Under the pieces are notes generated by a model. That model was not told the DNA's origin, ran no database searches, and saw only the letters and a list, made by a program, of their open reading frames with translations. From an uncultured bacterium (GTDB taxonomy: Bacteria > Planctomycetota > UBA1135 > GCA-002686595): a stretch of DNA of 64,000 nt. Shown one piece after another: positions 12,144 to 45,258 of this stretch. The translations under genes and the position numbers were made by a program. The stretch spans positions 1,326 through 65,325 of the forward strand of contig CALCXM010000039.1 in assembly GCA_937905825.1 (NCBI GenBank), read 5' to 3'. Within the stretch, counting starts at the first letter, position 1, and the number at the start of each line of letters is the position of its first letter.

Positions 12144-13577
12144 ATGAGACGACAAGGTTCATGGATGGGGCTGCTCGCCAGCCTCCCCCTGGTGCTGGGC
12201 GCCTGCGGGGAAGACGCATCCCAAGGGGCGCAGGTGCCCCCCCTGCCCGACTACATCGAGAACTTTGACAGCCGCGTGCGCGACCTCCTGAGTGAGAATC
12301 ACCAACGCCTGACGGAGGACCCCGGGGACCCCGAGCGCTGGATGGATTTGGGCAAGGCCTACGAAGCCCACCGGGAAGCCGCTCAGGCAGAGATCTGCTA
12401 CCGCAGCGCCCTGCGCATCGAGGCCACCAACCCGCGCTGGTGGTATCGCCTCGCCATGGCCCAGGAGATCAACGACAAGGTCGAAGAGGCCCTCAGCTCC
12501 TTGGAATCCTCAATTGCTCTAAACGACCAATACCCCCCCTCCCACTGGCGCCGTGGGCAATGGAAGCTCTTGCTGGGCGACACGCATGAGGCACGCGCTT
12601 GCTTTGAGCGCGCTCTGGCCATCGACCCCAGCGTGGAAGCGGCGCAGGTTGGCCTGGGCCAGGTTCACATGTGGCTCGGGGAACACGCGCAGGCTATCGC
12701 GCTCTTCGAGTCGGGCAACCTCCTGCAAGGCCCCAATGCTGCCTTTGTCAGCCGCCAATTGGGGACCTGCTACCAACGCATGGGCGAGGTCGACAAGGCC
12801 CGCAGCCTGCTGGCCGGAGTGACCGATGCGGAGCCGCGCTTCCCCGACCCTTGGAAGGCCGAGGTCAACAGCCTGCAGCGTGGCATGGCCGCCATCAATC
12901 GCGAGGCCCGCCAACTGATCGCCTCCGGGGAAGCCCTGCGCGCCATCCAAGAGTTGCAGGCCGCCCACGAGCTGGAACCAAAGCACATTCCCATTCTGCG
13001 CACCTTGGGCGCGGCCTACTCCGCTGCCGGGCAATTCACGAAGGCCCAATCGGCCCTGGAGAAAGCGGTGGCCATGGACCCCACGGACCTAGAGCTCGCC
13101 GTGGACGCCATCTGGGCGCGGGCCATGACGGGAGATGCGGCCGGTGCGCTGCTGGAGGTCGACAAGGTCATCGAGCAAGAGTCCATGAACCACAAGGCCC
13201 ACGGCTTGCGCGCCCAAGTCCTTTTGGATCTCGGTCGCGGAGCGGAAGCCATCGAGGCCTTTGCGCTCGCCACGAAACATGGAAACAAGAACCCGAAGCT
13301 CTTGGTGGACATCGGCCGGGTTCAGCTGCAACTCGGACGTTTGGAGCCTGCCATGCAGAGCTTTGTGCTCGCTGCAAACCAGGACCCGGCCTTGCAGGTC
13401 GCATGGATCGGCCAGGCCATAGCGGGCATCGAATTGAAGCGCTTTGACGACGCCGAGACGGCGATCGAACGGGCGGCTAGCTTGACGCCCACGGGCGCCC
13501 CTGAGGATCCCCTGCTTGAAATCATCCGCGATCAAATCGCGACCCTGCGACAGCCCGCTACTGCGCCACCGAAGTAG
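12144..13577 (+). CDS. TPR repeat lipoprotein
   Basis: MRRQGSWMGLLASLPLVLGACGED (lipobox LGAC), then about 10 TPR-like units (WMDLGKAYEAHREAAQAEICYRSALRIE, WWYRLAMAQEINDKVEEALSSLESSIALN, and others). Confidence 0.8.
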   Translation: MRRQGSWMGLLASLPLVLGACGEDASQGAQVPPLPDYIENFDSRVRDLLSENHQRLTEDPGDPERWMDLGKAYEAHREAAQAEICYRSALRIEATNPRWWYRLAMAQEINDKVEEALSSLESSIALNDQYPPSHWRRGQWKLLLGDTHEARACFERALAIDPSVEAAQVGLGQVHMWLGEHAQAIALFESGNLLQGPNAAFVSRQLGTCYQRMGEVDKARSLLAGVTDAEPRFPDPWKAEVNSLQRGMAAINREARQLIASGEALRAIQELQAAHELEPKHIPILRTLGAAYSAAGQFTKAQSALEKAVAMDPTDLELAVDAIWARAMTGDAAGALLEVDKVIEQESMNHKAHGLRAQVLLDLGRGAEAIEAFALATKHGNKNPKLLVDIGRVQLQLGRLEPAMQSFVLAANQDPALQVAWIGQAIAGIELKRFDDAETAIERAASLTPTGAPEDPLLEIIRDQIATLRQPATAPPK

Positions 13578-13591
13578 CTCCATCTCCCTCT

Positions 13592-15280
13592 ATGCAAATG
13601 CTCGTCCCTGCCCGCACCCTTTGCCTGGGCCTCGCCCTGGCCTTCCTCTGCGCTTGCTCCCCTGACACCAAGGAGGAGCCTTCCGCACCGTCCGCGGGCA
13701 CTGTTTGGTTCCGTGAAGTGGGTGCCTCCGCGGGACTCACGTTCGTGCACAACTCGGGCGCCCGGGGTGAGTTCCTGTTCCCCGAGCAGAACGGTGGCGG
13801 CGTGGCCCTCTTGGACTTCGATGCGGACGGCTTCCTCGACATCTTCATGTTGCAAGGGGGACAGATCCAAACGGCCGCAACGGAACGCACGAGTCATGGA
13901 CTCTTCCGCAACCGAGGCGACGGAACCTTCGAAGACGTCAGCGCGGGAAGTGGCGTTCAAGTGAAGGGTTTCGGCATTGGCGTGGTTGCCGGGGATTACG
14001 ACAACGACGGATTGACCGACCTGTACCTGCTCAACGTGGGCCCCAATGTGCTGCTGCGCAACGCTGGCGATGGCAAGTTTGAAGACACGACAGAACGGGC
14101 TGGAGTCGGAGATAGAGTCTGGAGTTCGAGCGGTTGCTTCTCCGACTACGATGGCGATGGTGACTTGGATTTGTACGTGACGAACTACGTCTACTGGAGC
14201 CTCTCCACCGATCGCGAGTGCTACGAGCAAAGCGGTCGCCGCACCTACTGCGGCCCCCACAGCTACAACGCGCCAGTTCCCGATCACTTGTACCGCAACG
14301 AAGGCGACGGAACCTTCGTGGACGTGTCGTCGGAAGCGGGGCTCGCCACGCGCTATGGCAATGGCTTGGGAGTCGTCAGCGCAGATTTCAACGGAGACGG
14401 CAAGCTCGATTTCTTCGTGGCCAACGATCGCACGGAGGACCAACTCTGGATGAACCAAGGAGACGGAACCTTCAAAGATGAAGCGCGCGTCATCGGTTGC
14501 GCCGTGGATCGCAACGGCATGTCGCGGGCCGGCATGGGCGTGGACTGCGCGGACGTGGACGATGACGGGGATCCGGACTTGATCGTGGTCAACCTGCACG
14601 GGGAGCTGGACGGATTTTACCGCAACGAGGGCCACTACTTTTTCGAGCAAACCACCAGCGCGGGCATCGGCCTGGTGACGCGCAGCTACACACGCTTCGG
14701 CGTGGGCTTCGTGGACTTTGACAACGACGGGGACTTGGACATCTACCAAGCCAACGGGCGGGTCACGTTGGTCGGCGAGGCCCTAGCCGAGGACCCCTAC
14801 GCCGAACCCAACGTGCTCTTGATCCGCTCCGAGCAAGGCAAGTGGCGCAAGTCCAGCCTGCAGGGCGGCACCTCCCAGTCCCTCGTGCACACCAGCCGTG
14901 GGGCCGCCTTCGGCGACTTCGACAACGACGGCGGCATGGATGTGGTCGTCGCAAACGCCAATTCGAGCCCCTACCTGCTGCGCAACGAGCACAGCCAGCG
15001 CGGACACTGGCTGATTTTGGACGTGCTCACCCCAGGCGGCTCCCCAGCCATCGGCGCCTCGGTTTTTGCCCCCCTAGAGGGCCGCCAGATCCGTCGAGAT
15101 GTGCTCCCCGGACGGAGCTATGCCAGTAGCTCGGACCCCAGGGTCCACTTGGGCCTCGGAAAATTGGGAGAAATTCCCCGGCTCGAAGTGCTCTGGGTGG
15201 ACGGCAGGCGGGAGGCGTTTGGGCCCTTCCAGGCCGACCAGAAAGTCGCCTTGCGGCAGGGTCAGGGTCGGGCGCTCTAG
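13592..15280 (+). CDS. CRTAC1-family FG-GAP/VCBS repeat lipoprotein with ASPIC/UnbV domain (paralog of 5172..7025)
   Basis: MQMLVPARTLCLGLALAFLCACSPD (lipobox). FG-GAP loops DFDADGFLDIF, DYDNDGLTDLY, DYDGDGDLDLY, DFNGDGKLDFF, DVDDDGDPDLIV, DFDNDGDLDIY, DFDNDGGMDVV. C-terminal GASVFAP...RSYASSSDPRVHLGLG...VLWVDG. Confidence 0.85.
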   Translation: MQMLVPARTLCLGLALAFLCACSPDTKEEPSAPSAGTVWFREVGASAGLTFVHNSGARGEFLFPEQNGGGVALLDFDADGFLDIFMLQGGQIQTAATERTSHGLFRNRGDGTFEDVSAGSGVQVKGFGIGVVAGDYDNDGLTDLYLLNVGPNVLLRNAGDGKFEDTTERAGVGDRVWSSSGCFSDYDGDGDLDLYVTNYVYWSLSTDRECYEQSGRRTYCGPHSYNAPVPDHLYRNEGDGTFVDVSSEAGLATRYGNGLGVVSADFNGDGKLDFFVANDRTEDQLWMNQGDGTFKDEARVIGCAVDRNGMSRAGMGVDCADVDDDGDPDLIVVNLHGELDGFYRNEGHYFFEQTTSAGIGLVTRSYTRFGVGFVDFDNDGDLDIYQANGRVTLVGEALAEDPYAEPNVLLIRSEQGKWRKSSLQGGTSQSLVHTSRGAAFGDFDNDGGMDVVVANANSSPYLLRNEHSQRGHWLILDVLTPGGSPAIGASVFAPLEGRQIRRDVLPGRSYASSSDPRVHLGLGKLGEIPRLEVLWVDGRREAFGPFQADQKVALRQGQGRAL

Positions 15281-15963
15281 CCCAGCCAGAGAGCGGGCCT
15301 GCGCCGCAGACCTATATATATGAGTGCTTTGGGAGCACCGGCCCCCGCAGGCGCACGAGGAAATGCGGCCACGAGAAAGGCTTCATCCATTCGACTGGTA
15401 ACCGGCTCCCGATGCTCGGGTATCCGCGCCCGGACTCCTCGAGAGTCTGAAGAACAACGGTTTGGCAGCGGGGGTTCAGTTGACCACCCACTGCCCTGTC
15501 GGTATCCTTCCCGCCTCTTTGAAGGGTTCCCCATCCCCCTACAACGCCGAGACTCGTACCACGAGTCGTCTCCTTGCCTCTCCACCGCGCGTCGGTGTGG
15601 GTACGCGTTGCAGAGGATGGATCATGAATCCGATCCACAGACTTCTTCTGATCAGAAGGTTGAGTTCCTTCGCTCCGCGCGCCGGTGTGAGCTGCACTCC
15701 TCTTTCGCCTCCTAGGCTGCTTGAGCCAGAGGGTCAATCGTGCGTGCGTCCCATTTGTTCCGCCCTGTGCCGGAATGGGGATCTTCGCCCGACCGTCCCC
15801 TTCATTTCGAGCAGGCCCAAGCTGAACGTAGTTTCAGTGCCGGCCACGCCACCCCACTGACAATCCCGATCACCTGAAGCGATGGTTCGTTTCGGGGCAG
15901 CCTCGGCCTCACCGCCGGGAATGCAGTTTTCCTCCAAGGCCTCACCTTAAGGCTCGAGTACTC

Positions 15964-18645
15964 ATGCGTCTGAGATTCCTCTTCCTTCCGCTTCTAGCGG
16001 TGGCCCCTGTCGCCTGCAACTCCACCGACTCAACGGTTCCTTCGGAAACCGCCAACACTGAGACCGGTCTGTCTGCAGACTCCGAGTCAACGAGCGATGC
16101 CGCCAATGGCCCTGCGCTTGATGACGCTGACCAGGCCGGCACCTCAGAAGCCAGCTTCACCCTCGACCCTGCCTTGCAGGGAACGCAACTGGGCCAAGAC
16201 GCTGAGCGTTTGCAGCTCAAGCGTACCCAGCGCGCTTCCCTCGCGGGTGCGACGATCAAGGAGGGCAACATGCACTTCGAGCGCGGAGACCTCGAGTCCG
16301 CACTCGTCGCGTACGCCCAGGCCATCGCCGTCGACCCCAGCAACACGGAAGCCCGTGAGCGCATGCAGAAGGTCGAAGCAATGCTCGGTCACCGCTACGC
16401 CGTGATTGCCGATACGCTCAGCGACGAAGTCGAGCGCGCCATGGTCAAGCGAGCCCAGGCCCGGATCGAGGCAGAGCGCTTCACGATTCGCGGCAAGGCA
16501 GACCTGCGCAACGCTGACTACGACAGCGCCATTCAGAATTTCCGAAGCGCGGAGATGATCCTGCGCTTCAACCCTCTTATTGCTACCGACTCCCTCGACG
16601 AGCAAATCGTCACGGGCATGTTGAACGAAGCGGTCACCCTGCGCGAAGAGGCTCGCGTCCAGGACAAGCGCCTCGCCCAACAAGCTGCCCAGCGCGCCAG
16701 CCAAATGGCCGAGCAGCGCGAGCAGGAGTACCTCGAGCAGCGCCTCGTCGCGCTCTTCAACCAGGCCAACCAGGCCTTCTTGAACGAGAACTTCAAGCAA
16801 GCTGAAGAGTACTGCGACCTGATCCTTGTGGAGGACACCGGCAACGAAGCGGCCGTCGTGCTCAAGGAGAACGCTCAGGCCGCTCGTCACCTGACCACCG
16901 CCGAGCGCAACCGCCGCGACTACAAGGAGCAGTGGATACGCACCTTCGACGACCTCGATCATATGGGCGTCATCCAAACCGAGGCGGTGGTCTTCAACGA
17001 CCTCGACCGTTGGTTGAAGGTCACCCAGCGCAAGCCCCTCGAGTTCGGCACCAACGCGGCTGAGGACGACGCCGAGAACGCCAGCGTCCTGGCGCGCCTC
17101 GAGTCCCACCGCATCCCGGTTGAGTTCGTCAGCGAAGACGGCGAGGGCGCTCCCCTCGCCCAGGTCGCCAACTTCTTCCAGACCTTGACCGGCGTGAACT
17201 TCGTGATCAGCACGGCTGTCCGCGAAGAGCTCGGCGAAGACGAGACCTTGGTCAACCTTCAACTGCCCGAGTACAGCGTCAAGAAGATCCTCGACATCAT
17301 CGCCGAGACCAACGACTCCCTGCGCTGGAAGATCCAAGACGGTGTGGTCAAGTTCGTCACCTCCGCAGAACTGATCGGTGGTCAAGTCCTCGTCATGTAC
17401 GAGGTGCGCGACCTGATTCGCCCGATCGTCGACTTCCCCGGTGCCGAGATCAACATCGAGCCCTCCGGCGGCATCACCTACCCGGACGAAGAGTTGCCCG
17501 AGCGTGAGGCAGGCGTGGTCGACGGCGACCGCCTGGACGCCCTCATCCGCGGCAACATCGACGCAGAGTCCTGGGAAACCGACTCCGCCAACAACCTCAC
17601 CATCGACGAGAACGGTGTGATGATCGTCAACCAGACGCCAGGCGTTCACGACAAGATCAGCCAGCTCCTGGCCGACCTGCGTGAGGCCACCGGCATCATG
17701 GTCGACATCCAGTCGCGCTTCATCCGCGTCGAGGACAACTTCTTGGAAGACATCGGCGTGGACTTCCGCGGCCTGGGCCAGCCCGGCCTCGGTACCAACG
17801 AGTTCTTCGACGACTTCGGCGACGCCACCACCCAAGCCGAACTCGGCGCGGAGATCGGTGCGGACCCGAGCCTCGGTGCTTACCTTGACGAAGGCAACGA
17901 CGGCGACATTCGCGGCCGCGTGGAGAGTCTCTACGACAGCTCCCTCGGCGTGAACAATGGCCTCGGAACCGAAGGCAACAACGGTCCCGGCCTGAATGCA
18001 ACCGGCGGCCTCAGCTTCCAGTGGACCTACCTGAACGACATCGAGCTGGAACTCATCCTGCGCGCCGTCAGCAAGTCCGAGCGCGTCCAGTTGGTCTCCA
18101 ACCCGCGCATCCTGATCGCGAACACGGGCCGCTCCAACCTGACCGTGCTCAACCAGGTCACCTACGTGAAGGACTTCGACGTGGAGATCGCCCAGGCGGC
18201 ATCCATCGCCGACCCGATCGTCGACGTCATCCAAGACGGCGTGATCCTCGACGTGCGTCCGGTGGTTTCTGCGGACCGTCGCTTCATCACCTTGGAACTA
18301 CGCCCCACCATCGCCGAACTCAAGCGCCCGATTCGTCAGGTCACCACCACCCTGGGTTCCCAGGCTTCGGTGACCATCGAGTTGCCCGAGCTTGAGATCC
18401 AGCGCATTCGGACCTCGATCCCGATGCCCGACGGCGCGACCGTCATGCTCGGCGGCCTGAAGTCTTCGGACTCCAAGGACTACCGCAGTGGCGTCCCGAT
18501 CCTCAACAAGATCCCGCTGGTCTCGATGCTCTTCGAGCGCAAAGGCAAGTACGTTGCCCGTCGCAAGTTGATGGTGCTGCTGCGTGCCGACATCGTGATC
18601 CCTTCGGAGGCTGAGCCCACCGCTGCCCAGCTGGGCGTTCGCTAG
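15964..18645 (+). CDS. secretin-family outer-membrane channel protein with lipoprotein-type signal and about 330-aa TPR/coiled-coil N-terminal region (secretin-1)
   Basis: MRLRFLFLPLLAVAPVACNS (signal peptide + Cys). TPR-like units (ERGDLESALVAYAQAIAVDPSNTEARERM). N0-like domain (IPVEFVSEDGEGAPLAQVANFFQTLTGVNFVIS...VVKFVT). Secretin core (RFIRVEDNFLEDIGVDF...VSNPRILIANTGRS...LDVRPVVSADRRFITLEL). C-terminal signature GVPILNKIPLVSMLFERKGKYVARRKLMVLLRADIV. Confidence 0.85.
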   Translation: MRLRFLFLPLLAVAPVACNSTDSTVPSETANTETGLSADSESTSDAANGPALDDADQAGTSEASFTLDPALQGTQLGQDAERLQLKRTQRASLAGATIKEGNMHFERGDLESALVAYAQAIAVDPSNTEARERMQKVEAMLGHRYAVIADTLSDEVERAMVKRAQARIEAERFTIRGKADLRNADYDSAIQNFRSAEMILRFNPLIATDSLDEQIVTGMLNEAVTLREEARVQDKRLAQQAAQRASQMAEQREQEYLEQRLVALFNQANQAFLNENFKQAEEYCDLILVEDTGNEAAVVLKENAQAARHLTTAERNRRDYKEQWIRTFDDLDHMGVIQTEAVVFNDLDRWLKVTQRKPLEFGTNAAEDDAENASVLARLESHRIPVEFVSEDGEGAPLAQVANFFQTLTGVNFVISTAVREELGEDETLVNLQLPEYSVKKILDIIAETNDSLRWKIQDGVVKFVTSAELIGGQVLVMYEVRDLIRPIVDFPGAEINIEPSGGITYPDEELPEREAGVVDGDRLDALIRGNIDAESWETDSANNLTIDENGVMIVNQTPGVHDKISQLLADLREATGIMVDIQSRFIRVEDNFLEDIGVDFRGLGQPGLGTNEFFDDFGDATTQAELGAEIGADPSLGAYLDEGNDGDIRGRVESLYDSSLGVNNGLGTEGNNGPGLNATGGLSFQWTYLNDIELELILRAVSKSERVQLVSNPRILIANTGRSNLTVLNQVTYVKDFDVEIAQAASIADPIVDVIQDGVILDVRPVVSADRRFITLELRPTIAELKRPIRQVTTTLGSQASVTIELPELEIQRIRTSIPMPDGATVMLGGLKSSDSKDYRSGVPILNKIPLVSMLFERKGKYVARRKLMVLLRADIVIPSEAEPTAAQLGVR

Positions 18646-18744
18646 TCGGGGTCTTTTCCCGAACGCGCTCCCCCCTCCGAGACGCCCCCTACCGCCTACG
18701 CCCCCCGGGGCGTGAGCCGGAAAGGGACAGATCGAATCGACGGA

Positions 18745-18773
18745 GGGAGGTCCCGGCAAGGCCGGGGCCTCCC
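18745..18773 (+). terminator. GC-rich hairpin downstream of secretin-1 (possible terminator or processing site)
   Basis: GGGAGGTCCCGGC-AAG-GCCGGGGCCTCCC, a 13-bp stem (one G-U) with a 3-nt loop, followed only by TTC (weak U tract). Confidence 0.35.
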
Positions 18774-18986
18774 TTCGCATAGACCCCTTCCCCCCTTGGT
18801 CCCAACGGCTGCTGTCCTTATCGGCGCTGGTTTGGTGACGAGCGGGTGGGTGTACGAAAACTCTCATCGATCAGTGCGTTGCCGCACAACATGAGGCGGG
18901 TAGTCATCGGACCGAAGGTCCCGACTCACCTTGTCCTACCGCAACATCTCCTCCCTGCTTTGAAGCCGAGCGCCCCCACTAAAGCC

Positions 18987-21962
18987 ATGAAGAGCCTGCC
19001 CTCTGCTCTCTCACGCGCCTTGTCGACCCCCTTCACCGCGGCCATCGCCCTGGCCCTCGGTAGCGCCAGCGCATTCGCCGCGACGTGGACCCCCTCTGTG
19101 CTGAGCGTGGACAAGAGCCAGGCCGCCATTGCGGACGACATCGCCTTCGCCAAGGGCCTCGCAGCGGACTGGGGATTCGTCGACCTCGCCACCGGTCTCA
19201 TCAAGCGCATCGAGCAGGAGGGCGTCAATAGCGAAACCTCCATCCGCCTCGGCGTGGTCAAGTGCGAGATTTACGCCCAGGGCGCGCTCGCTGAACGGGA
19301 CCGAGACACCCGCAACGAACTCTTCGAGCAGACCCTGGCGGCCTACCAGGACTTCCTGGAGAAGAACCCGAACTCGGCCGCCGCCTCGGAAGCCCGCGCT
19401 GGTTTCATCAGCATGTCCTCCGCCTTCGCCATGTCGCTCCAGATCTCCATGGAGGACGCCATCGGCGAGACGGCCGAAAGCCTGCGCAGGCGTCGCGAAG
19501 AAGTCCTGCTGGCGGCCAACGATGGCACGGCCGGCCTGATTGAGGAGCTGAAAGGCCGCTACGAAGAGGAGCCCAGCGAGGGCCTCAAGCGCGAACTCGT
19601 CAAGGTCATGTTGATCCGCGCCAACCTCAACCTCGAGATTGGCAAGAGCAGCGAAGACGGCACCTTCAGTTTCGAGGAGTCCCGCAAGATTCTCGAAGAC
19701 GTGGTGTTCTTCGCGGGCGAAGGCACCCCGGACTCCCTGCGTGCCTACGACATGATCGGTCAAGTGCTCAGCGCTCAACAGCGCTGGCGCAACGCCGCCA
19801 TCTACTTCAGCGCCGTGGTCGATCAAGCCCTGCCGGCTGACCTGGCCGTCTGGAACCAAATCGTCGAAGAACTCGAGCTCACCCAAACGGACAAGGAGCA
19901 GCGCTGGTTGTTCCTCGAGCTCTCCATCGGCGGTCTGATGGATGCACACATTTCCAATGGAGATGTGACCAGCGCCACGCGCTATGCCCTGCACCTGTAC
20001 AACACCCAGCGCCGTGAGGGCTTCGAGTTCTCCACGGGTTTGGGTTACCCCTCCCTGTTGACGGCAGCCCGCGTGCTGCTCGATGCGGGCGGCGTGGTCG
20101 CTGGCAAGATTCAGAGTGGTGAAGGCGAGTGGTACGAGTCCGTCGACGCCGCTCAAGAGGCGGGCCACAAGATCGCCCGCAACCGCAAGACCACCACCGA
20201 CTTGGCCCTGGGCATCGCTCAACAGGTCATCAACGAAAACCCCAAGAGCATCCTGCGCCTGAAGGCTCAGAAGTTGATGTCGGAGATCACCTCGCGCCCC
20301 GGCGTCAAGGTGGACCCGGCTGTGCTCTACGAAGTAGCCGAAGGTCTGTACAACTCTGGCGATGATGACGACGGCGCACTGGCCGCCTTCAAGGTCGTGC
20401 TCAACGCCCTCGAAGCGGAAAGCGAATCGACCCGCATCGAACTCGGCGCGAAGACCTTCTTCCGCATGGGTCGCACGTACATCCGCAAGGAGCTGGTCTT
20501 CGAGGCCGCCATGGCTTTCCGTGAGGGTTGCACCACCTACCTCGGTGACCCGCAGTACGACAGCAACAACGCTGAGGGTTACTACAAGGCCATGCAGATT
20601 CTGCTGTCGCGTTCCAAGCAGGACCGCGCGATTCAGACCATGAACCTGGAGGCCGAGAACATCGTCGCCAAGGTCTCCACCAAAGATCAGGACTCGATCC
20701 TGATGGACCAGGGCGACCGCGCGCGACGCAAGGGCGACTTCGCCACGGCCATTAGCAAGTACGAAGGCATCCAGCGCTCGGCCAACGACTACGAGAAGGC
20801 TGTCGTCTACATCCAGATCTGCAAGAAGTTCCAAGGGGAAGAGGACACGGCCCTCGCTGCCCTGACGGAGTACATCGAGAACTACGTCGAGGACCCCCTC
20901 AACGGTGTGCAGGGCGGCAAGATCGCTGCTCGGCAAACCGCCTTGGGCGCCGCCCGCTACTTCCGCTGCGAGATGGAGTTCCAGAAGAAGATGTACGCGG
21001 AGGTCATCGCTTCTTCCGCGAGCTACTACCTGGATCATCCAGAGCAGACGAGCTTCGCGCCGCGCACTATGTACATGGTTGCCAACGCCTACTTGGAGCT
21101 GGGCAAGCTCAAGGAAGCGCGCGACCTGTTGCAGGAGATGCAGGGTCTCAGTCCCGAAGGCGACTTCACCATCAAGGTCGGCGTTGCGATCTACAACCAC
21201 CTCAAGGACAAGCGGGACGAACTGACTCCGGGATCCGAGGCCGACTTGGCTCTCGCCCTCGAGATGGCGACCCTGCTGGAGGCCAAAAACAAGAACGCCA
21301 GCAAGCCAGACTTCGGTGACCTGCGCTCCGAGTCCAAGCACTGGTCCGAGCTCGGCATGTGGGGCAAGGCCATTCCGGTTCTGGAAAAAATTCTGAGCAA
21401 GTTCAGCGCCCTCGACAAGCACGCGGACAGCATCGCGAACTACGTGAAGCCCGACTTGGGTCAGGCCCTCTTGGCTCTGAACCGCGTCAAGGAAGCCCAC
21501 GAACTGCTGGCCCCTCTGGTCCTGCCCGCGGACGCCAAGCCCTCCAAGGAGACCCTGCTCAACTTCATCCGCTCCACCATCGGCTGGGTGCAGGGCAACG
21601 CTTCCGACATCCAGGAAGTGCCCGGAGCCGGCTCCACCGAAGAGTCCTTCCAGGTCGCCACGGACAAGCTCAACAGCCTGGCCAACGCCTCCGACGACAA
21701 GTGGAAGGCCGAGTGGTACAACCTCAAATTCCAGCTGGCCTACGGCTACTACCGCTGGGCGACCGCCGAGGGCGGACCGAAGAACAGCAAGAAGATGGAC
21801 ACGGCCCAGTCCCAGTTGAACTCGATCGTTCAGGCTGTCGGAAACGACTTCAAAGGCAAGGACGGGGATCCGGGGGTCGACGACGCCTGCAAGGGTCACC
21901 CCGAATTCGGAGACGACGTCCTGCGGCGCCGCCTGGTGTGGCTCTGGGGCAAGGTCAAGTAG
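18987..21962 (+). CDS. large secreted all-alpha TPR-like repeat protein (991 aa)
   Basis: ATG 18987 gives MKSLPSALSRALSTPFTAAIALALGSASAFAATW (Sec signal, AFA-A cleavage-like). The rest is helical-repeat-like (e.g. YEKAVVYIQICKKFQGEEDTALAALTEYIE, YMVANAYLELGKLKEARDLLQEM, GQALLALNRVKEAHELL). No catalytic motif seen. An alternative upstream ATG at 18891 lacks a signal peptide. Confidence 0.7.
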   Translation: MKSLPSALSRALSTPFTAAIALALGSASAFAATWTPSVLSVDKSQAAIADDIAFAKGLAADWGFVDLATGLIKRIEQEGVNSETSIRLGVVKCEIYAQGALAERDRDTRNELFEQTLAAYQDFLEKNPNSAAASEARAGFISMSSAFAMSLQISMEDAIGETAESLRRRREEVLLAANDGTAGLIEELKGRYEEEPSEGLKRELVKVMLIRANLNLEIGKSSEDGTFSFEESRKILEDVVFFAGEGTPDSLRAYDMIGQVLSAQQRWRNAAIYFSAVVDQALPADLAVWNQIVEELELTQTDKEQRWLFLELSIGGLMDAHISNGDVTSATRYALHLYNTQRREGFEFSTGLGYPSLLTAARVLLDAGGVVAGKIQSGEGEWYESVDAAQEAGHKIARNRKTTTDLALGIAQQVINENPKSILRLKAQKLMSEITSRPGVKVDPAVLYEVAEGLYNSGDDDDGALAAFKVVLNALEAESESTRIELGAKTFFRMGRTYIRKELVFEAAMAFREGCTTYLGDPQYDSNNAEGYYKAMQILLSRSKQDRAIQTMNLEAENIVAKVSTKDQDSILMDQGDRARRKGDFATAISKYEGIQRSANDYEKAVVYIQICKKFQGEEDTALAALTEYIENYVEDPLNGVQGGKIAARQTALGAARYFRCEMEFQKKMYAEVIASSASYYLDHPEQTSFAPRTMYMVANAYLELGKLKEARDLLQEMQGLSPEGDFTIKVGVAIYNHLKDKRDELTPGSEADLALALEMATLLEAKNKNASKPDFGDLRSESKHWSELGMWGKAIPVLEKILSKFSALDKHADSIANYVKPDLGQALLALNRVKEAHELLAPLVLPADAKPSKETLLNFIRSTIGWVQGNASDIQEVPGAGSTEESFQVATDKLNSLANASDDKWKAEWYNLKFQLAYGYYRWATAEGGPKNSKKMDTAQSQLNSIVQAVGNDFKGKDGDPGVDDACKGHPEFGDDVLRRRLVWLWGKVK

Positions 21963-22046
21963 GCCCCCCTGGTTCTTCCCGCCTCCTGAATCTTAGTAGT
22001 TGTGACCCAGCCCCCCTTCCCTAGAATGTTTGCCCCGTCTCTCTCC

Positions 22047-23231
22047 ATGCGCAAGCCGATCCAAGCCCTCAAGACCTCTGCCACGACCCTCTTCCAGAGG
22101 AGCGCGTGGGGTGCCTTGCTGTGTGCTCCGGTCCTCTGCCTCAGCTCCCCCGCTGTGGCCCAGGGGCGTCCCGACCAGGTCTTCTACGATGGCGGCCGCC
22201 AGGACTCAGGAGTCGTCACCGAAAACGGTCTCTCGAACGTTTTGCTCGACCGCAGTGGCAAGGAAAAACGCATCGCCTCGGCGAACGTGGTGCGCATCAT
22301 CTGGGGTCAGGTTTCCAACGCGTACCGCGAAGGCGGCACCTACTTTGAGCGCGGCGACTACGAGAACGCAGCGGCCAAGTTTGGCTTGGCAGCCTCCGAC
22401 GACGCGCGCAACGTGATTCGCGCCGTAGCACGCATGAAGACCGGTGAGTCCCTGCTGATGCTAGGTGCCGGGGACGCATCCCAGTACGAAGCGGCCCTCG
22501 AGCAGTTTGCCACCTACGTCAAGGACTACCCCAACTCCCGGGATCTGCCAAACGTCTACGCCTTGCAAGCGCGCACCACCCTACTGCGCGGCAAGGAAGG
22601 AGACTCGGCGACTGCTGGCGCCATCTACCGCAAGATCTTCGAGTCCGGAACCGGCGCCACGCCGGCCGACGGCTACAACCGCCTCTTCTCCATGAAGGCG
22701 GGACTGGGCGCCATTCGCGCTCTGACCAGTGCGGGCGACACCCTTGGGGCCCGGGAAATCTCCGGCATCCTGACCGGTGAGATCACGCACATGCGCACCA
22801 CCCTGGAGGCAGACTCCAGCGACATCGCCGTCTTGGACGGACTCGCTAGCGAAGCGCAACTGTCCGAGGGCTTCGTGCTCCTGGCGGGCGATCAGGCCTC
22901 CAAAGCGGAGACCTTCTTCATGACGCAGCTCGCGGGCTCCCAAGGCAAGGCCTCGGCCCTGCGCTACGGCTCCATGTTCGGCTTGGGCCTCGCCCAGGTC
23001 GCTCAGAACAAACACCGCGAGGCGAGCGTGAACTTTGCCACCGTCGCGGCCACTGATTTCACTGATCGCGACCGTTCTGCGCTCGCTCTTCTGCATCTTG
23101 CAGAAACTATGATCAAGCTGGGGGATAATGGAGCCACTGCTGACGCGCGAGTGCGTTTGCGGACGGTTGCTGAGGCCTTCGGTGATACTCCTTCAGCGGC
23201 GGCAGCCAGGAAGCTCCTCGAGGAGCTGTAA
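22047..23231 (+). CDS. secreted/anchored TPR-like protein (about 394 aa)
   Basis: MRKPIQALKTSATTLFQRSAWGALLCAPVLCLSSPAVAQG (signal or signal-anchor), a short beta-like module (VFYDGGRQDSGVVTENGLSNVLLDRSGKEKRIASANVVRIIWG), then TPR-like helices (YFERGDYENAAAKFGLAA...). Start ambiguous: GTG 22002, ATG 22026 or ATG 22047. Confidence 0.65.
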   Translation: MRKPIQALKTSATTLFQRSAWGALLCAPVLCLSSPAVAQGRPDQVFYDGGRQDSGVVTENGLSNVLLDRSGKEKRIASANVVRIIWGQVSNAYREGGTYFERGDYENAAAKFGLAASDDARNVIRAVARMKTGESLLMLGAGDASQYEAALEQFATYVKDYPNSRDLPNVYALQARTTLLRGKEGDSATAGAIYRKIFESGTGATPADGYNRLFSMKAGLGAIRALTSAGDTLGAREISGILTGEITHMRTTLEADSSDIAVLDGLASEAQLSEGFVLLAGDQASKAETFFMTQLAGSQGKASALRYGSMFGLGLAQVAQNKHREASVNFATVAATDFTDRDRSALALLHLAETMIKLGDNGATADARVRLRTVAEAFGDTPSAAAARKLLEEL

Positions 23232-23398
23232 CCCGAACTGCCTTCGTCTCCCTCCACTTTCTACCCCATTGGGTTCCAGAGCTTGCTGAGTTCTAGGGCC
23301 TACAATCCGGCCAGCTGGCCTTCCTCGGAAGGATCTCTCGGCTGGAATGGATCCCCTCCCACCACCCTCACCTTCGACTCCAAAGGAGTTCCTCGGTC

Positions 23399-24127
23399 AT
23401 GATCCTTAGTCAGGCTTCGAGCCGTTTGGCGCACTTCGCCACCCGGACGCTCCCCATTGCCACTGCGGCAGCTCTTACTTCCACTCCCCTCTTCGCTCAA
23501 GACGGCGGAGGCAGTGCCCTCGATGTGTTCACCAAATCGGGAACCATCGGTATCCTCATCATCCTGCTCTCCGTGGTTGCCTTGGCGGTGATCATCGAGA
23601 ACACGGTGACCCTGAAGCGCGACAAGCTGGCTCCCCCGGAGCTGATCGACGAGGTCCAGGCCCTGTTTGACGAAGGTCAGTACCAGGAGGCCATGGAACT
23701 CTGCGAGAACGAGCCCTGCTTCTTCACCCGCATCGCTGGTGCTGGTATCGCCAAGATCGGTCACCCCTTCGAGGTCATCGAGCAGTCGATCGCCGAGATG
23801 GGCGACGAAGAGTCCATCCGCCTTCACCAGAAAATCGGTTGGCTTTCGCTGATCGCCAACGTGGCGCCCATGATGGGTCTGCTCGGTACTGTGGGTGGAA
23901 TGATCAAGGCGTTCGAGACGATCGCCTCCTCCCAAGGTCAGGCGAGCCCGGCTGAACTGGCCCTCGGTATTTCTGAGGCGCTGCTCACCACCATGCTCGG
24001 TCTTGTTGTGGCTATCCCCACCAGTGCTATGTTCGCGTTCCTGCGCAACCGCCTGGTGAAGACGGTCATCGAAGTTGGCGCGATCATCGAAGACCTCTTC
24101 GAGCGCTTCCGCCCCAACGCTGCCTAG
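23399..24127 (+). CDS. exbB: MotA/TolQ/ExbB-family proton channel protein
   Basis: LSLIANVAPMMGLLGTVGGMIKAF and ALGISEALLTTMLGLVVAIPTSAMFAFLRNR are the conserved TM2/TM3 ExbB signatures. AAAGGAG Shine-Dalgarno about 10 nt upstream of ATG 23399. N-terminal signal-like extension MILSQ...TSTPLFAQDGGG. Confidence 0.9.
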   Translation: MILSQASSRLAHFATRTLPIATAAALTSTPLFAQDGGGSALDVFTKSGTIGILIILLSVVALAVIIENTVTLKRDKLAPPELIDEVQALFDEGQYQEAMELCENEPCFFTRIAGAGIAKIGHPFEVIEQSIAEMGDEESIRLHQKIGWLSLIANVAPMMGLLGTVGGMIKAFETIASSQGQASPAELALGISEALLTTMLGLVVAIPTSAMFAFLRNRLVKTVIEVGAIIEDLFERFRPNAA

Positions 24128-24219
24128 TTTGATTCGATTGGGTGAACCTGTCGCGCACAGGTTCACCCGATCGGATAGGCCCCCCCCACGATCACGAAGG
24201 TCACCCACCCAACGACCCC

Positions 24220-24705
24220 ATGAACCTGAACAAGCACGACCCCGAGACCAATATGGACATGGACATGACGCCGATGATCGACGTCGTCTTCCTGCTCATC
24301 ATTTTCTTCATGGTCATCACCGACTTGACGCAGCAGGACCTCGAGGACTTGGTGCTCCCGGTGGCGAAAAACGCTGTCGCTGACAAAGTCGACCCGAACG
24401 CTTTCCGCCCGATCGTCAACATCAAGACGGACGGACAGATTCTGGTCAAACGCCAGGTCCTGTTCGATCCTGAGGCATCCGACGACTACAAGGGCCTTCG
24501 AATCTTCCTGGCCGACGTGGCCAAGAAGATGGAGAAGAGCAAGGACGCTCTGAAGCTTCCGGACCAGCCCCTTTTGATCCGTGCTGACCTGAACACCCCG
24601 TTCAAGTACATCCAAAAGGTCATGGAGCAGTGCGGCTACAAGGACGTCCAGATCTGGAAAATCCAGCTCGCGGCCTCCGAGGCTCCCGCCGAGGAAGAAC
24701 TCTAG
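24220..24705 (+). CDS. exbD: ExbD/TolR-family biopolymer transport protein (ExbD-1)
   Basis: ATG 24220 gives MNLNKHDPETNMDMDMTPMIDVVFLLIIFFMV, the canonical ExbD N-terminus/TM with conserved Asp, and a periplasmic domain ...LLIRADLNTPFKYIQKVMEQC. Confidence 0.85.
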   Translation: MNLNKHDPETNMDMDMTPMIDVVFLLIIFFMVITDLTQQDLEDLVLPVAKNAVADKVDPNAFRPIVNIKTDGQILVKRQVLFDPEASDDYKGLRIFLADVAKKMEKSKDALKLPDQPLLIRADLNTPFKYIQKVMEQCGYKDVQIWKIQLAASEAPAEEEL

Positions 24706-24744
24706 TTGCGGCCCCCCCGCCAAGACCTCTAGAAGAAAACAACC

Positions 24745-25260
24745 ATGTCTCAACTAGCTGATATTGCCAAAGAAGAATCCAAGCTCGAGATGACGCCGAT
24801 GATCGACGTCACCTTCTTGCTGCTGATCTTCTTCATGTGCACCCTGAAGTTCAAAAGCCTCGAGGGCAAGCTGGCTGCCTATCTCCCCAAGGATGTGGGA
24901 GTGAACAGCAGCGACGCCGAGCCTATCGAAAAGGTCGAAATCGTCTGCAAGGTCCTAAAAGAGGGTCGCCGAGTCGAGCCCCGAAAGGACAAGAGCGAAC
25001 CCGCTGTCGAATGGGACGGCGTGGCTGGCACCCGCTATGAGTACGAAGGTCGTGAGATGATCTACGGCATCGGCCCCAAGATCACCACGGACCTCGAAGA
25101 GATCGCGAGGACGCTGAAGCGGATTCACGAGAACGATCCTGAGCGCCCCGCAACCATCGATGCTCGCAAAGGTACGGTCTACGCCGACGTGGTGGGCCTC
25201 CTGGACGCGGCCATGAACGCGAATTTCACCGACGTGACCTTTGTCGGCTCTTACGAGTAA
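24745..25260 (+). CDS. exbD: ExbD/TolR-family biopolymer transport protein (ExbD-2)
   Basis: MSQLADIAKEESKLEMTPMIDVTFLLLIFFMCTLKF... and ATIDARKGTVYADVVGLLDAAMNANF. A second, diverged ExbD paralog. Confidence 0.85.
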   Translation: MSQLADIAKEESKLEMTPMIDVTFLLLIFFMCTLKFKSLEGKLAAYLPKDVGVNSSDAEPIEKVEIVCKVLKEGRRVEPRKDKSEPAVEWDGVAGTRYEYEGREMIYGIGPKITTDLEEIARTLKRIHENDPERPATIDARKGTVYADVVGLLDAAMNANFTDVTFVGSYE

Positions 25261-25284
25261 GGCCTGGCCGCAGATTGGAAGCGC

Positions 25285-25376
25285 CCCGGGACACAAAAAA
25301 GTGGCCCGGGACACAACGAACAACCAGAACAACCACGAGGCGGCCCCTTCAAAAGGCAAGAGCCCCCTCAAAAGGC
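25285..25376 (+). promoter_or_regulatory. cluster of three short direct-repeat pairs in the exbD-2/secretin-2 spacer
   Basis: CCCGGGACACAA at 25285-25296 and 25305-25316. Tandem GAACAACCA at 25318-25326 and 25327-25335. CCCCTTCAAAAGGC 25344-25357 and CCCCCTCAAAAGGC 25363-25376. Function unknown. Confidence 0.35.
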
Positions 25377-25632
25377 CACAGGGAGGCCTGATTCTCCCAT
25401 ACAGCCTTTGACCGCAGGACCCGCCTCCTGGTATGTTCTTCCCCGTTAGAGAGACCCCGCGCGCGCCGTTTGTGGTCCTTCTCACACCAAGTTTCAGCAC
25501 TAAGATCTAAGGCCTCAGGCAGAGGATTTCAGTGGATGGTTCACCCTTCTATCTCCCGCGTGGAGTTTGGGGGCAGACCGCAGCGATCTACCCCGTCCCA
25601 CAACCCGCATTCTCGAGAGATCCCCGCTCCTT

Positions 25633-28287
25633 ATGAGGAACTCCGATCTGAAGACTCCCATCCTCAAGCGCACGGCCGTTGCTTCCGCAACGCTCGTCTC
25701 CGCCTTGTTCTTCGCCGCATGTGTATCGACGCCTGGAATGGTGTCCGAGGGCAATGCTACTTGGGAGCCCGATCCCACGAGCGTCGCTCCTCCGGTGAAT
25801 GCCCCCACGGCCAATCCCCAGAGCGGCGACACCAGTGCCGACGAGATGCTGCGCAAAGACCGCCAGACGCTCGACCTCAAGGAGCAACGCCGCAAGTTTC
25901 TTGTGGACGAGCACCTGAAGGCTGCTGGCAACCTCCGTGGCCGCTTGCGTCTGCAGGAATGCCGTGACCAGCTCTTGGCTGCCCTGAGTCTCGACTCGGA
26001 CAACCTGGACGCCAAGCGCCAGCTGGCTGAGGTCAACGCTCTGCTCGGTGGCGACACCGGTTCCGTGGCCACCACGGTCACCGAGACGCTGCAGCAAACC
26101 ACCAAGATCAAGACCCAGCAGATGCGCGCGCAAGCTCGCGATCTCCTGCGAGAAGGCAAGGCTCTGCTGGCCAAAGGCAACTACGACGGGGCCATCGCCC
26201 AGTTGACGATCGCCTCCCAGACGGTGCACTACGCCCCCTACGCGATCGAGTGGGAAGGGGTCGACTCGGAAATCGAGAGCAACTTGGCCGCTGCTAAGAA
26301 GAGCCGGACGACCGCCCAGGCCGCCGCTCTTGAGCAACGCCAGCGTCTAGCCTTCGACCAGCTGCAGTCCCGCGAGGAAGCCGACGTCATGCAACGCCGC
26401 GCGCTCGTCGAGAACATGCTGACTCAGGCCATCGACGCCTTCGACAAAGCACGCTACGAGGATGCGATCTACTTCGCAGACCAAGCACTGCGTCGCGACC
26501 CCCGCAACGAGAAGGCTGAAGAACTGCGTGCTAGCGCTTTCAAGGCCAACCAAAAGCAGGCCCGCGCCGAATACGTGACCGCCAAGCGCGAGCAGTTCAA
26601 GCGTTGGAAGGAAGAGCTCAACAGCTACAAGATCGCCTGGTCCGACACCATCACCCTGCCCAGTGCAGAAGAGTGGGCGCAGCTAACGGAAACCCGCAAG
26701 GGACGTCGCGGCCTCGACCTGACCAAGACCCGCTCGGATGCAGACATTGCCCTGCGCAAGCGCCTTGCGGGCACGCACATCACTCTGCCCGAAATCGACG
26801 CAGTCGGTAGCATTCGCGAGCTGATGGACATGATCCGCCTCATGACGGCTCTGCCCCTCGTGGTGGACCCCTCCGCTGAGAACGAAGTCTTGGACGGCGG
26901 CATCGAGTTCACCTTCTCCTTCGAGAACCAACTGACCGTGGAGCAGGCCCTCAACCTGATCACGGACATGGCCGGCCCCGAGGTCACCTGGATCGTGCGT
27001 CACGACGCCGTGCTCGTCACGACCCGCGAAAAAGCCCGAGGCGAACCCGTTGTGGTTCACCACGACGTGGAAGACCTGGTCTTCGGCCTGACCGAGTTCA
27101 TCGGCCCGCGCATCAACCGCATCCGTCTGCTTGACGAGCTCGAGGACGAAGACGGCGGTGGCCCCTTCGGTTTCGTGGGCGAGCAGCAGAAGCTGATCGA
27201 CATCGACAACCTGGTCACCATGATCCAAGAGAACGTGGAAACGGCCTCTTGGGAAGAAGGCGGCAGCCTCGAGGGCTACGACGGTCACATCATCGTCGTC
27301 ACCACCCCCGAGATCCAAGCGAAGGTCAATGACTTCCTCGAGGACCTGCGCAACTTCAGCTCTTCGATGGTCACCATCGAGACCAAGTTCATGACCGTCG
27401 GCGACAACTGGATCCAAGAGATCGGTGTCGACTTCCGCGGCTTGGCGGACAACCCGCTTTCGGACATCACGAACGGACTCGAGGACATGGCTTCCCGTGG
27501 TTTGGACAACGGCGGTACAGGATCTGCTGGATCCAACGCTGCTGGTGCCCCCTCCTCCGGTTTCTACTACAACGACGAGGCGGATGGCGACATGCGCGGC
27601 CGGACCGAAAACTTCTTCGGCTCCGACCTCGGTGAAACCCTCTCCACCATGGGAGGCATGACCTTCCAGTACTCCTTGCTCAACGACCTGGAACTCGCCG
27701 CCGTCTTGCGCGCCGTCGAGAAGAGCCAGAACCTGGTGCTGATCAACGACCAGGTGCTCTCCGTGCACAACACGCAGCGCGCCTACGTCACGATCTTGAA
27801 CCAGCGGGCTTACATCCAGGACTTCGACGTGGAGGTCGCGACCTTCCAGGCCGTGGCTGACCCGCAGATCAACGTCCTCAACGAAGGCGTGGTTCTCGAC
27901 GTCCGTCCGACCATCCACCACGACCGGCGCTACGTGACCCTTGAGGTCCAGCCGACAGTGGCCAAGGTCGTCAACGTTCGCCGCTACTCCACCACCCTGG
28001 GCGGTAACACCTCCCCGGTGGAGTTCGAGCTTCCCGAACTGGAAGTCCAGAGCGTGTTCACCACGGCGCATATCCCGGACGGCGGTTCGATCCTGCTCGG
28101 CGGTTTGACCGACATCCGGAACGTGGAACGTCGCGCGGAAATCCCGTGGCTCGCCCGCATCCCGCTGGTCGGCTTCTTCTTCAAGTCTGAGGGTTACAAC
28201 GATGAGAACAAGTCGCTCATCATCCTGATCCAAGCGAAGATTACGGACGTCCGCGAGGAAGTCGCCCGCATCGAAGCCGCCTACTAG
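25633..28287 (+). CDS. secretin-family outer-membrane channel protein with lipoprotein-type signal and about 400-aa TPR/coiled-coil N-terminal region (secretin-2, paralog of 15964..18645)
   Basis: ATG 25633 gives MRNSDLKTPILKRTAVASATLVSALFFAACVS. TPR-like units (LLAKGNYDGAIAQLTIASQ, AIDAFDKARYEDAIYFADQALRRDPRNEKAEELR). N0-like domain (ITLPEIDAVGSIRELMDMIRLMTALPLVVD...VLVTT). Secretin core (KFMTVGDNWIQEIGVDF...LDVRPTIHHDRRYVTLEV). C-terminal EIPWLARIPLVGFFFKSEGYNDENKSLIILIQAKIT. Confidence 0.85.
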   Translation: MRNSDLKTPILKRTAVASATLVSALFFAACVSTPGMVSEGNATWEPDPTSVAPPVNAPTANPQSGDTSADEMLRKDRQTLDLKEQRRKFLVDEHLKAAGNLRGRLRLQECRDQLLAALSLDSDNLDAKRQLAEVNALLGGDTGSVATTVTETLQQTTKIKTQQMRAQARDLLREGKALLAKGNYDGAIAQLTIASQTVHYAPYAIEWEGVDSEIESNLAAAKKSRTTAQAAALEQRQRLAFDQLQSREEADVMQRRALVENMLTQAIDAFDKARYEDAIYFADQALRRDPRNEKAEELRASAFKANQKQARAEYVTAKREQFKRWKEELNSYKIAWSDTITLPSAEEWAQLTETRKGRRGLDLTKTRSDADIALRKRLAGTHITLPEIDAVGSIRELMDMIRLMTALPLVVDPSAENEVLDGGIEFTFSFENQLTVEQALNLITDMAGPEVTWIVRHDAVLVTTREKARGEPVVVHHDVEDLVFGLTEFIGPRINRIRLLDELEDEDGGGPFGFVGEQQKLIDIDNLVTMIQENVETASWEEGGSLEGYDGHIIVVTTPEIQAKVNDFLEDLRNFSSSMVTIETKFMTVGDNWIQEIGVDFRGLADNPLSDITNGLEDMASRGLDNGGTGSAGSNAAGAPSSGFYYNDEADGDMRGRTENFFGSDLGETLSTMGGMTFQYSLLNDLELAAVLRAVEKSQNLVLINDQVLSVHNTQRAYVTILNQRAYIQDFDVEVATFQAVADPQINVLNEGVVLDVRPTIHHDRRYVTLEVQPTVAKVVNVRRYSTTLGGNTSPVEFELPELEVQSVFTTAHIPDGGSILLGGLTDIRNVERRAEIPWLARIPLVGFFFKSEGYNDENKSLIILIQAKITDVREEVARIEAAY

Positions 28288-28309
28288 GGCTCCGAAAAAG
28301 CAATTCAAA

Positions 28310-28346
28310 GGGTCGTCCCGCTCAATAGCGGGACGGCCCTTTTTTT
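28310..28346 (+). terminator. rho-independent terminator closing the secretin/ExbBD block
   Basis: GGGTCGTCCCGC-TCAATA-GCGGGACGGCCC (12-bp stem, one mismatch) followed by TTTTTTT, 23 nt after the secretin-2 stop. Confidence 0.8.
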
Positions 28347-28435
28347 GCGTGAAGGGCTGATCCCCTCGGTCCTCTAGTATCTGTGACTTCCGGTCACTCC
28401 TGGGATCCAGCCCCACTAGCCCCACCCCCGCTTCC

Positions 28436-29158
28436 ATGTCTGGTCTCGACGCGATCTTCTTCGATATCGATGACACCCTGTTCCCCACCTCCGAGTTCGC
28501 CAAGCGCGCGCGCTGGAACGCGGTCAAAGCCATGGTGGCCGCAGGCCTGAACGCTTCGGAGAACACGGTCTACGCGGAGCTCTCCGAGGTCATCTCCGAG
28601 TTCACCTCGAACTACGGCCGGCACTTCGATCACTTGATGAAGCGCCTGGGGCCCGACCCCACACGGGGGACCAACCTGGCCCTGGTGATCGCTGCTGGTG
28701 TGGTGGCCTACCACGACACCAAGTTCCAGGAGATCGCCCCCTTCGACGACGTGATCCCGCTGCTCAAGGACTTGCAGGAACAAGACCTGCTGGTGGGCAT
28801 CATCACCCACGGCTGGACGGACAAGCAGGCGGAGAAGCTGGTGCGTTTGGGCCTGGTCCCCTATTTGGATGCCGACGCCATCTACATATCCGAGCAGGTT
28901 GGCATTTCGAAGCCCAACCCCAAGCTCTACTTGCACGCCCTCGCAAAACACAAGCTCGATCCCAAGCGCGTGATGTACGTGGGCGACAATCCCCTGCACG
29001 ACGTGGCCCCCGCGCGCTCCCTCGGCATGCCCACCGCCTGGGCCAGCCGCGCCGCCCGCAAATCCCCCGCCGAACTCGGGGTCGAGATCGACCACTCGAT
29101 CACGAACTTCGAACAGCTGCGGGTGGTCCTGCGCCAGCACTACGACGTGAAGGTGTAA
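28436..29158 (+). CDS. HAD-superfamily hydrolase (subfamily IA-like)
   Basis: DAIFFDIDDTLF (DxDxT motif I), ...GIITHG (motif II-like), VGDNPLHDV (motif IV). Confidence 0.8.
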   Translation: MSGLDAIFFDIDDTLFPTSEFAKRARWNAVKAMVAAGLNASENTVYAELSEVISEFTSNYGRHFDHLMKRLGPDPTRGTNLALVIAAGVVAYHDTKFQEIAPFDDVIPLLKDLQEQDLLVGIITHGWTDKQAEKLVRLGLVPYLDADAIYISEQVGISKPNPKLYLHALAKHKLDPKRVMYVGDNPLHDVAPARSLGMPTAWASRAARKSPAELGVEIDHSITNFEQLRVVLRQHYDVKV

Positions 29159-45247: not shown

Positions 45248-45258
45248 TCCCCCGCGCG

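Follow-up and report, generated by a model that had tools for sequence, protein, structure and literature searches.

Here we analysed a 64,000-nucleotide stretch of DNA from an uncultured planctomycete (GTDB lineage Planctomycetota; UBA1135; GCA-002686595; GenBank assembly GCA_937905825.1, contig CALCXM010000039.1, positions 1,326 to 65,325 of the forward strand), referred to below as the window, and focused on two secretin genes that lie in it on the forward strand. Sec1 (15964-18645) encodes a predicted lipoprotein secretin of 893 residues with a helical, tetratricopeptide repeat (TPR)-like head, as judged from the open reading frame (ORF) translation, Pfam matches and more than 120 orthologues. 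Sec2 (25633-28287, 884 residues) is a paralogous predicted lipoprotein secretin, recognised from its ORF translation and its likeness to Sec1 over the full length. Secretins had been placed at both positions by a first-pass annotation made from the sequence alone, and we confirmed that both ORFs are intact and encode full-length secretins. The Pfam Secretin domain (PF00263, gathering score 27.5) forms the C-terminal core of each protein, with 91.4 bits for residues 702-878 of Sec1 (18067-18597) and 82.5 bits for residues 695-871 of Sec2 (27715-28245). Because the Sec2 orthologues open with an identical 'MRNSD..', the ATG at 25633 was taken as the correct start of Sec2.

In a profile search of the PDB, the nearest solved structures to the Sec1 core were phage pIV (7ofh, E 1.3e-12) and GspD (6i1x), with PilQ, RcpA and MxiD also matched. 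The curated NCBIfam secretin models (MshL, GspD, PilQ, SctC and the Amuc_1098 family) all score far under their own cut-offs. Just 13-15 residues trail the secretin domain in the two proteins, so the C-terminal S-domain for a PulS-type pilotin is absent. Sec1 and Sec2 align from end to end by BLASTP (28% identity, E 3e-99) and are collinear over their full length. The first-pass annotation had described the paralogues as related in the core and divergent in the N-terminal region. The relationship in the core holds and the N-termini have indeed diverged, yet they are clearly homologous, with an hhalign probability of 99.9% (E 4.5e-37) over about 300 columns of the N-terminal modules.

Both proteins begin with a signal peptide that ends in a cysteine: ..APVAC in Sec1 (15964-16017, Cys18) and ..FFAAC in Sec2 (25633-25722, Cys30), the latter a canonical lipobox matching PROSITE PS00013. 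Cys18 is invariant in an alignment of 38 sequences, comprising orthologues at 52-79% identity to Sec1, and is followed by about 55 unconserved residues; Cys30 is likewise invariant among 42 Sec2 orthologues. A lipobox-like N-terminus, which we defined as a basic N-terminus, an uncharged hydrophobic stretch, Ala, Gly or Ser at -1 and then Cys, is present in 105 of 120 Sec1-family and 96 of 109 Sec2-family proteins. The failures are mostly truncated gene calls, several of which still contain the '..AC' motif. The same layout recurs in nearly every full-length distant relative, to as little as about 25-30% identity. The strict PS00013 pattern is matched by 94 of the 109 Sec2-family proteins in addition to Sec2 and by 42 of the 120 in the Sec1 family, where position -3 is Pro in 54 of 105 proteins and Leu, Thr or Ala in other orthologues. 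When the pattern is relaxed to admit Pro at -3 or -4 or Trp at -2, 106 of the 120 Sec1-family proteins fit. The residue at +2 is Arg, Gln, Lys or Asn in the Sec1 family and Ala, Ser, Val or Thr in the Sec2 family, and it is never Asp. The source genome encodes both Lgt (PF01790, 136.8 bits) and LspA (PF01252, 101.6 bits). Since the lipobox Cys is kept in the two paralogue families as well as in their distant relatives, and the genome has these two enzymes, Sec1 and Sec2 are very probably acylated lipoproteins.

AlphaFold2 models of both proteins were built as monomers on the family alignments. These two independent models agree on the layout, with confident N-terminal helices, and indicate a shared order of lipobox signal peptide, disordered linker, helical module, N0-like domain, N1/N3-like domain and divergent secretin core. 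The linkers are 40-55 residues long and rich in Ser, Thr, Ala, Asp and Pro. In Sec1 the linker comprises residues 19-71 (16018-16176), which are S/T/A/D-rich and unconserved, with no secondary structure and a predicted local distance difference test (pLDDT) score below 50; in Sec2 it comprises residues 31-68. The Sec1 helical module (residues 72-333, 16177-16962) is modelled with pLDDT values mostly of 82-96 in 10-residue blocks and contains an internal repeat with generic TPR matches. Its homologue in Sec2 spans residues 69-332 (25837-26628). Four long helices are predicted in each module, at 72-106, 155-182, 211-273 and 295-333 in Sec1 (35, 28, 63 and 39 residues, with short helix pairs between them) and at 69-103, 149-181, 210-271 and 293-332 in Sec2. 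Within the Sec1 module, residues 76-123 align with residues 152-199 (hhalign probability 95%), and a third unit is weakly in register (E 0.004, hhalign probability 8%). In each unit, a long charged helix leads into one TPR-like motif. The only canonical TPR that Pfam and the PDB profile search clearly recognise lies at Sec1 residues 99-131. "TPR-like/coiled-coil", the description given at first pass, is therefore a fair label, and "TPR domain" overstates what is there. The 330-400 residues originally assigned to this region need revision, as it consists of about 55 disordered and about 260 helical residues.

A conserved Trp-rich connector joins the helical module to the N0-like domain in the AlphaFold2 layout. 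Where a single N0-like domain had been proposed ahead of the core, we instead find two N-type domains. In Sec1, the N0-like domain (residues 383-480, 17110-17403) has an alpha/beta fold with pLDDT 81-87 and a Foldseek match to GspD N0-N1 (3ezj), and the N1/N3-like ring domain (residues 520-576, 17521-17691; pLDDT 81-85) is where the PilQ, SctC and Amuc_1098 profiles match. The corresponding N0-like (380-478) and N1-like (516-578) domains of Sec2 lie at 26770-27366, and their top Foldseek matches are EscC (3gr5), InvG (6pem and 4g08) and MxiD N0-N1 (6rwk). Sec2 also matches the liposecretin complex BfpB-BfpG (9u5s). These matches to GspD, EscC, InvG, MxiD and BfpB-BfpG support the identity of both regions as secretin N domains. 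In two distant relatives from low-GC-type planctomycetes, P0334 and P0369, the lipobox is separated from the helical module by an additional domain of about 240 residues, and P0300 has a Cys-rich C-terminal tail.

All named relatives of the pair belong to Planctomycetota. Most are metagenome-assembled genomes, and they include Candidatus Uabimicrobium helgolandensis. A Sec1-type protein is encoded in at least 465 species-representative genomes, and we found no paper on this planctomycete secretin family. The two-secretin arrangement, noted at first pass in the window, is a conserved pair: in all 80 related Planctomycetota loci Sec1 comes first, Sec2 follows it in essentially every locus where the contig reaches far enough, and the gene order is kept as uracil-DNA glycosylase (UDG), Sec1 ... 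Sec2, HAD hydrolase. In the family tree, with a topology that is indicative only, the Sec1-like and the Sec2-like proteins each form a deep clade. The pairing of Sec1 and Sec2 is real and old.

Between the two secretin genes, on the same strand, are genes for two secreted TPR proteins (18846-21962 and 22002-23231), an ExbB (23399-24127) and two ExbD proteins (24142-24705 and 24745-25260), identified from Pfam matches and their N-termini. The translations of the TPR proteins have cleavable-looking Sec-type signal peptides and no TonB-type anchor, and no TonB, TolA or vWA-type transducer is encoded between Sec1 and Sec2 (18846-25260). Approximately 40 of the 80 loci share this bracketed arrangement, with Sec1 and Sec2 around TPR-TPR-ExbB-ExbD-ExbD. 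A third ExbD gene is present in some related loci (L005, L006, L008, L015, L018, L029 and L071). Sec1 and Sec2 are directly adjacent in 18 loci according to our classifier, and the synteny table gives this order for three unclassified loci (L027, L031 and L032) as well. Adjacent-type loci include L011, L012, L016, L020, L022 and L026; L051, L052 and L057 look like intermediates with a weak TPR remnant only. A search for the large TPR protein in five adjacent-type genomes gave no match in four and one weak match, at 25% identity, in the fifth. In the Sec1 tree, loci of the adjacent type fall into one main clade and two isolated cases, all nested among bracketed lineages, so the bracketed form looks ancestral and the insert appears to have been lost repeatedly with both secretins kept.

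A consensus scan identified a strong terminator-like hairpin with a 16-bp stem and a T-run just after Sec2 (28307-28342, forward strand), which is the sole long stem within 15200-28600. Unusually long non-coding gaps precede both secretins, at 15281-15963 (about 680 nucleotides) and 25261-25632 (about 372 nucleotides), with sigma-70-like consensus matches at 15480 in the first and at 25408 in the second.

Pfam scanning of the larger ORFs of the window revealed no type II secretion system (T2SS) or type IV pilus genes (PilM/N/O, pilins, ATPases), although several ORFs were matchless and the size cut-offs would miss short genes such as those for pilins. Elsewhere, the source genome encodes four further secretins (on contigs C96, C67, C111 and C74) and six PilB/GspE-like ATPases. 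Three of the four share a contig with a secretion ATPase gene, within a few kilobases, so the pair in the window is extra to these systems. No secretin lies near the ATPase clusters on C65, C83 and C39 (about 128 kb), and one such secretin-less cluster is on the contig of Sec1 and Sec2 itself, at a distance of about 100 kb. Elsewhere in the window, pairs of FG-GAP/ASPIC (CRTAC1-like) and TPR proteins are encoded at 4863-8131 and 12144-15280, in opposite gene order, flanking MiaB-like and UDG genes. An ABC ATPase and a 1073-residue ABC_transp_aux (GldG-like) protein at 43566-48480 possibly form a gliding-associated-type ABC transporter. An exopolysaccharide-type cluster on the reverse strand (50912-63979) contains a Wzz/GNVR tyrosine-kinase-like protein of 948 residues, several GT4 glycosyltransferases and a Wzy_C polymerase-like protein.

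The closest described protein to Sec1 and Sec2 is the Akkermansia muciniphila PilQ, Amuc_1098. This protein was located experimentally as the most abundant outer-membrane protein of A. muciniphila, and it contains an N-terminal "BAM" domain of three TPRs described as "resembling the pilotin proteins" (Ottman et al. 2016, PMC4960237). Lipidation of Amuc_1098 is not stated in the main text or supplement of that paper, nor in a 2026 Nat Commun paper. Like Sec1 and Sec2, Amuc_1098 comes from the Planctomycetes-Verrucomicrobia-Chlamydiae (PVC) superphylum, is about 900 residues long and has an N-terminal TPR region, an N domain and a C-terminal secretin core in the same order. The NCBIfam profile NF042912, named "Amuc_1098 family type IV pilus outer membrane protein", matches both proteins collinearly. 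In Sec1 the matched parts are the N-terminal helical region (residues 81-140 against profile 28-87), the N-domain region (548-601 against 431-484) and the core (758-881 against 664-799). With 100.6 bits for Sec1, about one seventh of the cut-off of 750, and 68.6 bits for Sec2, neither protein is a member of that family. The planctomycete proteins also differ in being a conserved paralogue pair, placed ancestrally around TPR/ExbBD genes. Amuc_1098 itself sits in a pilus-type cluster.

The biogenesis of secretins is commonly attributed to separate pilotins, and the self-piloted HxcQ is cited as the lone known exception (PMC12475490). In Pseudomonas aeruginosa, the lipid anchor of HxcQ pilots the secretin to the outer membrane (Viarre et al. 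2009, as cited in PMC12475490). Sec1 and Sec2 resemble HxcQ and BfpB in that each secretin has its own N-terminal lipid anchor and linker, the anchor being predicted from sequence in the planctomycete pair. Neither HxcQ nor BfpB, another outer-membrane liposecretin, is known to have a helical TPR-like module. Both are encoded inside complete T2SS or type IVb pilus operons; in contrast, no ATPase, platform or pilin gene was found near Sec1 and Sec2 among the larger ORFs of the window. The sequence prerequisites for an HxcQ-type liposecretin, namely a predicted lipobox, a linker and no S-domain, are present in both proteins, and by analogy self-piloting of this kind is plausible.

The pilotins PilF/PilW/Tgl and TadD (2ho1, 2fi7; RcpA-TadD, PMC10499894) likewise combine a lipobox with TPR-type helices tied to a secretin. 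These are separate proteins and compact TPR superhelices, however, and the structural match of Sec1 and Sec2 to them is generic. GspD/PulD and PilQ have the N0 domain, ring-building N domain and C-terminal secretin core also seen in Sec1 and Sec2. The GspD model TIGR02517 scores 88.8 and 65.8 bits for Sec1 and Sec2 versus a cut-off of 351, and the planctomycete proteins, with just two N domains, lack both the N0-N3 series and the S-domain of GspD. The PilQ model TIGR02515 scores 80.9 and 56.3 bits versus 284, with no AMIN domain detected by Pfam. At the level of gene order, PVC clusters of the type "TPR - tolQ-like - two tolR-like - vWA transducer" have been described without secretins (Mol Biol Evol 2025, PMC12204202). 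As in those clusters, a TPR gene is followed at the Sec1/Sec2 locus by an ExbB/TolQ-like gene and then two different ExbD/TolR-like genes. The locus differs in that it has no vWA or TonB-like transducer and its motor genes are bracketed by two secretins.

We consider it probable that Sec1 and Sec2 are anciently duplicated members of a Planctomycetota-wide lipoprotein secretin family, with the domain order of the PVC "TPR-secretin" Amuc_1098, that are self-anchored and act together. After Sec export, Lgt and LspA would acylate the conserved Cys, as suggested by its conservation and the presence of both enzymes. By analogy with HxcQ, the lipid anchor would then bring the protein to the outer membrane without a separate pilotin, and the linker of 40-55 residues would allow the anchored N-terminus to extend as far as the channel's periplasmic end. 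The helical module may form an extra periplasmic ring or a docking surface below the N0 ring rather than act as a PilF-type chaperone. The paralogues could work together, either in a single mixed ring or as two pores that cooperate, perhaps within one apparatus. In the ancestral locus, the secretin genes would have flanked those for an ExbB-ExbD-ExbD proton motor and two periplasmic TPR proteins.

The first-pass annotation had gone further, proposing self-piloting secretins in which a TPR pilotin is fused to the channel. Its lipidation half is very likely correct, given the conserved Cys. The other half, a true fusion in which the module descends from a PilF/PilW/Tgl or TadD-type TPR lipoprotein and provides chaperoning, outer-membrane targeting and oligomerisation in cis, appears unlikely. 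The N-terminus does combine a lipobox with TPR-like motifs, PilF is among the Foldseek matches with a probability of 0.98-1.0, Sec2 has a weak BamD/YfiO profile match (E 0.03), and the authors of the Amuc_1098 study made the same analogy (PMC4960237). In the Foldseek searches with both models, however, PilF (2ho1, 2fi7) ranks 22nd for Sec1 and 14th to 16th for Sec2, with template modelling (TM) scores of 0.21-0.23 and a root-mean-square deviation of 28-35 Å. The matches in general are to generic TPR proteins, which superpose very poorly overall, and PilF fares no better, or worse, than designed TPRs and eukaryotic proteins such as Hop/P58IPK. The predicted structures resemble TPR proteins generically and not PilF/PilW/Tgl in particular. 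In the PDB profile search with the module alignment, the best 60 of 110 matches were confined to OGT, Hop/STI1, RPAP3 and designed consensus TPRs, and PilF, PilW and TadD did not occur in that set. The module was also considered as specifically PilF/PilW/Tgl-like, TadD-like or BamD-like, and these assignments were rejected when the PDB profile search and Foldseek on each AlphaFold2 model gave nothing specific. Its three units of a long helix plus a single TPR-like motif, including the 63-residue helix, differ from a compact six-TPR superhelix. We also looked for the module as a protein of its own. Among 1.84 billion representative proteins, an exhaustive hmmsearch gave 9171 hits, of which 96 (as protein clusters at 50% identity) had E <= 1e-30. 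None of the best 150 is a stand-alone homologue: the single-stretch, full-coverage matches examined are secretin fusions of approximately 850-1070 residues or cut or frameshifted fragments, and the short matches inspected are contig-end truncations or frameshifted tails. Since no free-standing module was seen among them, there is no Rosetta-stone support for the fusion of once-separate proteins, and a fused PilF-type pilotin is not supported.

Several observations weigh against a self-anchored, jointly acting pair. Three orthologues (P0089, P0156 and P0209, the only such cases) have plain type I signal peptides without a Cys, which argues that the lipid anchor is dispensable. Sec1 itself fails PS00013, solely by its Pro at -3; the "relaxed lipobox" that had been ascribed to both proteins is accurate for Sec1, and that of Sec2 is canonical. 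These two points speak for a reading in which the proteins are not lipidated, being cleaved by signal peptidase I or not at all, with the conserved Cys serving another role such as a disulphide. We regard this as highly improbable, as the Cys always ends the hydrophobic region with Ala, Gly or Ser at -1, and Sec2 and 94 of its 109 relatives satisfy even the strict pattern. Furthermore, the lipobox Cys is the sole cysteine in 34 Sec1-family and 38 Sec2-family proteins, which excludes an intramolecular disulphide in those. The destination of the anchor is a separate matter. Outer-membrane targeting is an assumption, and the Pfam model for LolA found no match in the source genome, which is weak evidence from an assembly 88.6% complete and an insensitive model that also misses Bacteroides in a control panel. 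The acylated N-terminus might instead stay in the inner membrane, with the linker and long helices spanning the enlarged planctomycetal periplasm in place of a GspC/PilP-type connector and the module lying beside the ExbBD motor and the TPR proteins. In solved secretins the N-terminal end is always nearest the inner membrane, helices 35-63 residues long would extend the protein by several nanometres, no LolA was detected, no GspC/PilP-like gene was found nearby, and a TonB-less ExbB-ExbD-ExbD motor lies ancestrally between the two secretin genes. Such a trans-envelope tether is conceivable and rather unlikely. There is no Asp at +2, although the retention rule based on that residue comes from E. 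coli; Sec2 matches the structure of BfpB, another outer-membrane liposecretin; and the anchor of HxcQ, the precedent studied by experiment, leads to the outer membrane in the work cited in PMC12475490 (Viarre et al. 2009). The secretin cores themselves were poorly modelled (pLDDT below 50), as expected for monomers. Finally, the derived clade retains both secretins without the TPR/ExbBD genes, and this loss weakens any obligatory link to the motor. A bolder proposal is a Planctomycetota-specific secretin conduit coupled to the proton-motive force, in which a mixed-ring or two-pore gate with no type II/IV filament ATPase would be powered or gated by ExbB-ExbD-ExbD through the TPR proteins and helical heads, possibly for macromolecule uptake or export. 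We offer this as a speculation of quite low probability.

For the pilotin-secretin fusion claim the outcome is sobering, as the resemblance is of the generic TPR kind and the idea had already been voiced for the Akkermansia PilQ (PMC4960237). The architecture was in part documented before, and neither half of the idea is new in kind: the TPR head is known from Amuc_1098 (PMC4960237) and self-piloting from HxcQ (PMC12475490). What is new is that the lipobox is conserved throughout a phylum-level family, that the head is built of repeats and that the paralogues are paired. We know of no solved secretin with a conserved helical head and an obligate paralogue pair. The helical head together with the pair offers a testable entry into secretin docking in bacteria with an enlarged periplasm. 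If the predicted lipidation is confirmed, secretins with an anchor of their own would be the norm in Planctomycetota rather than a curiosity.

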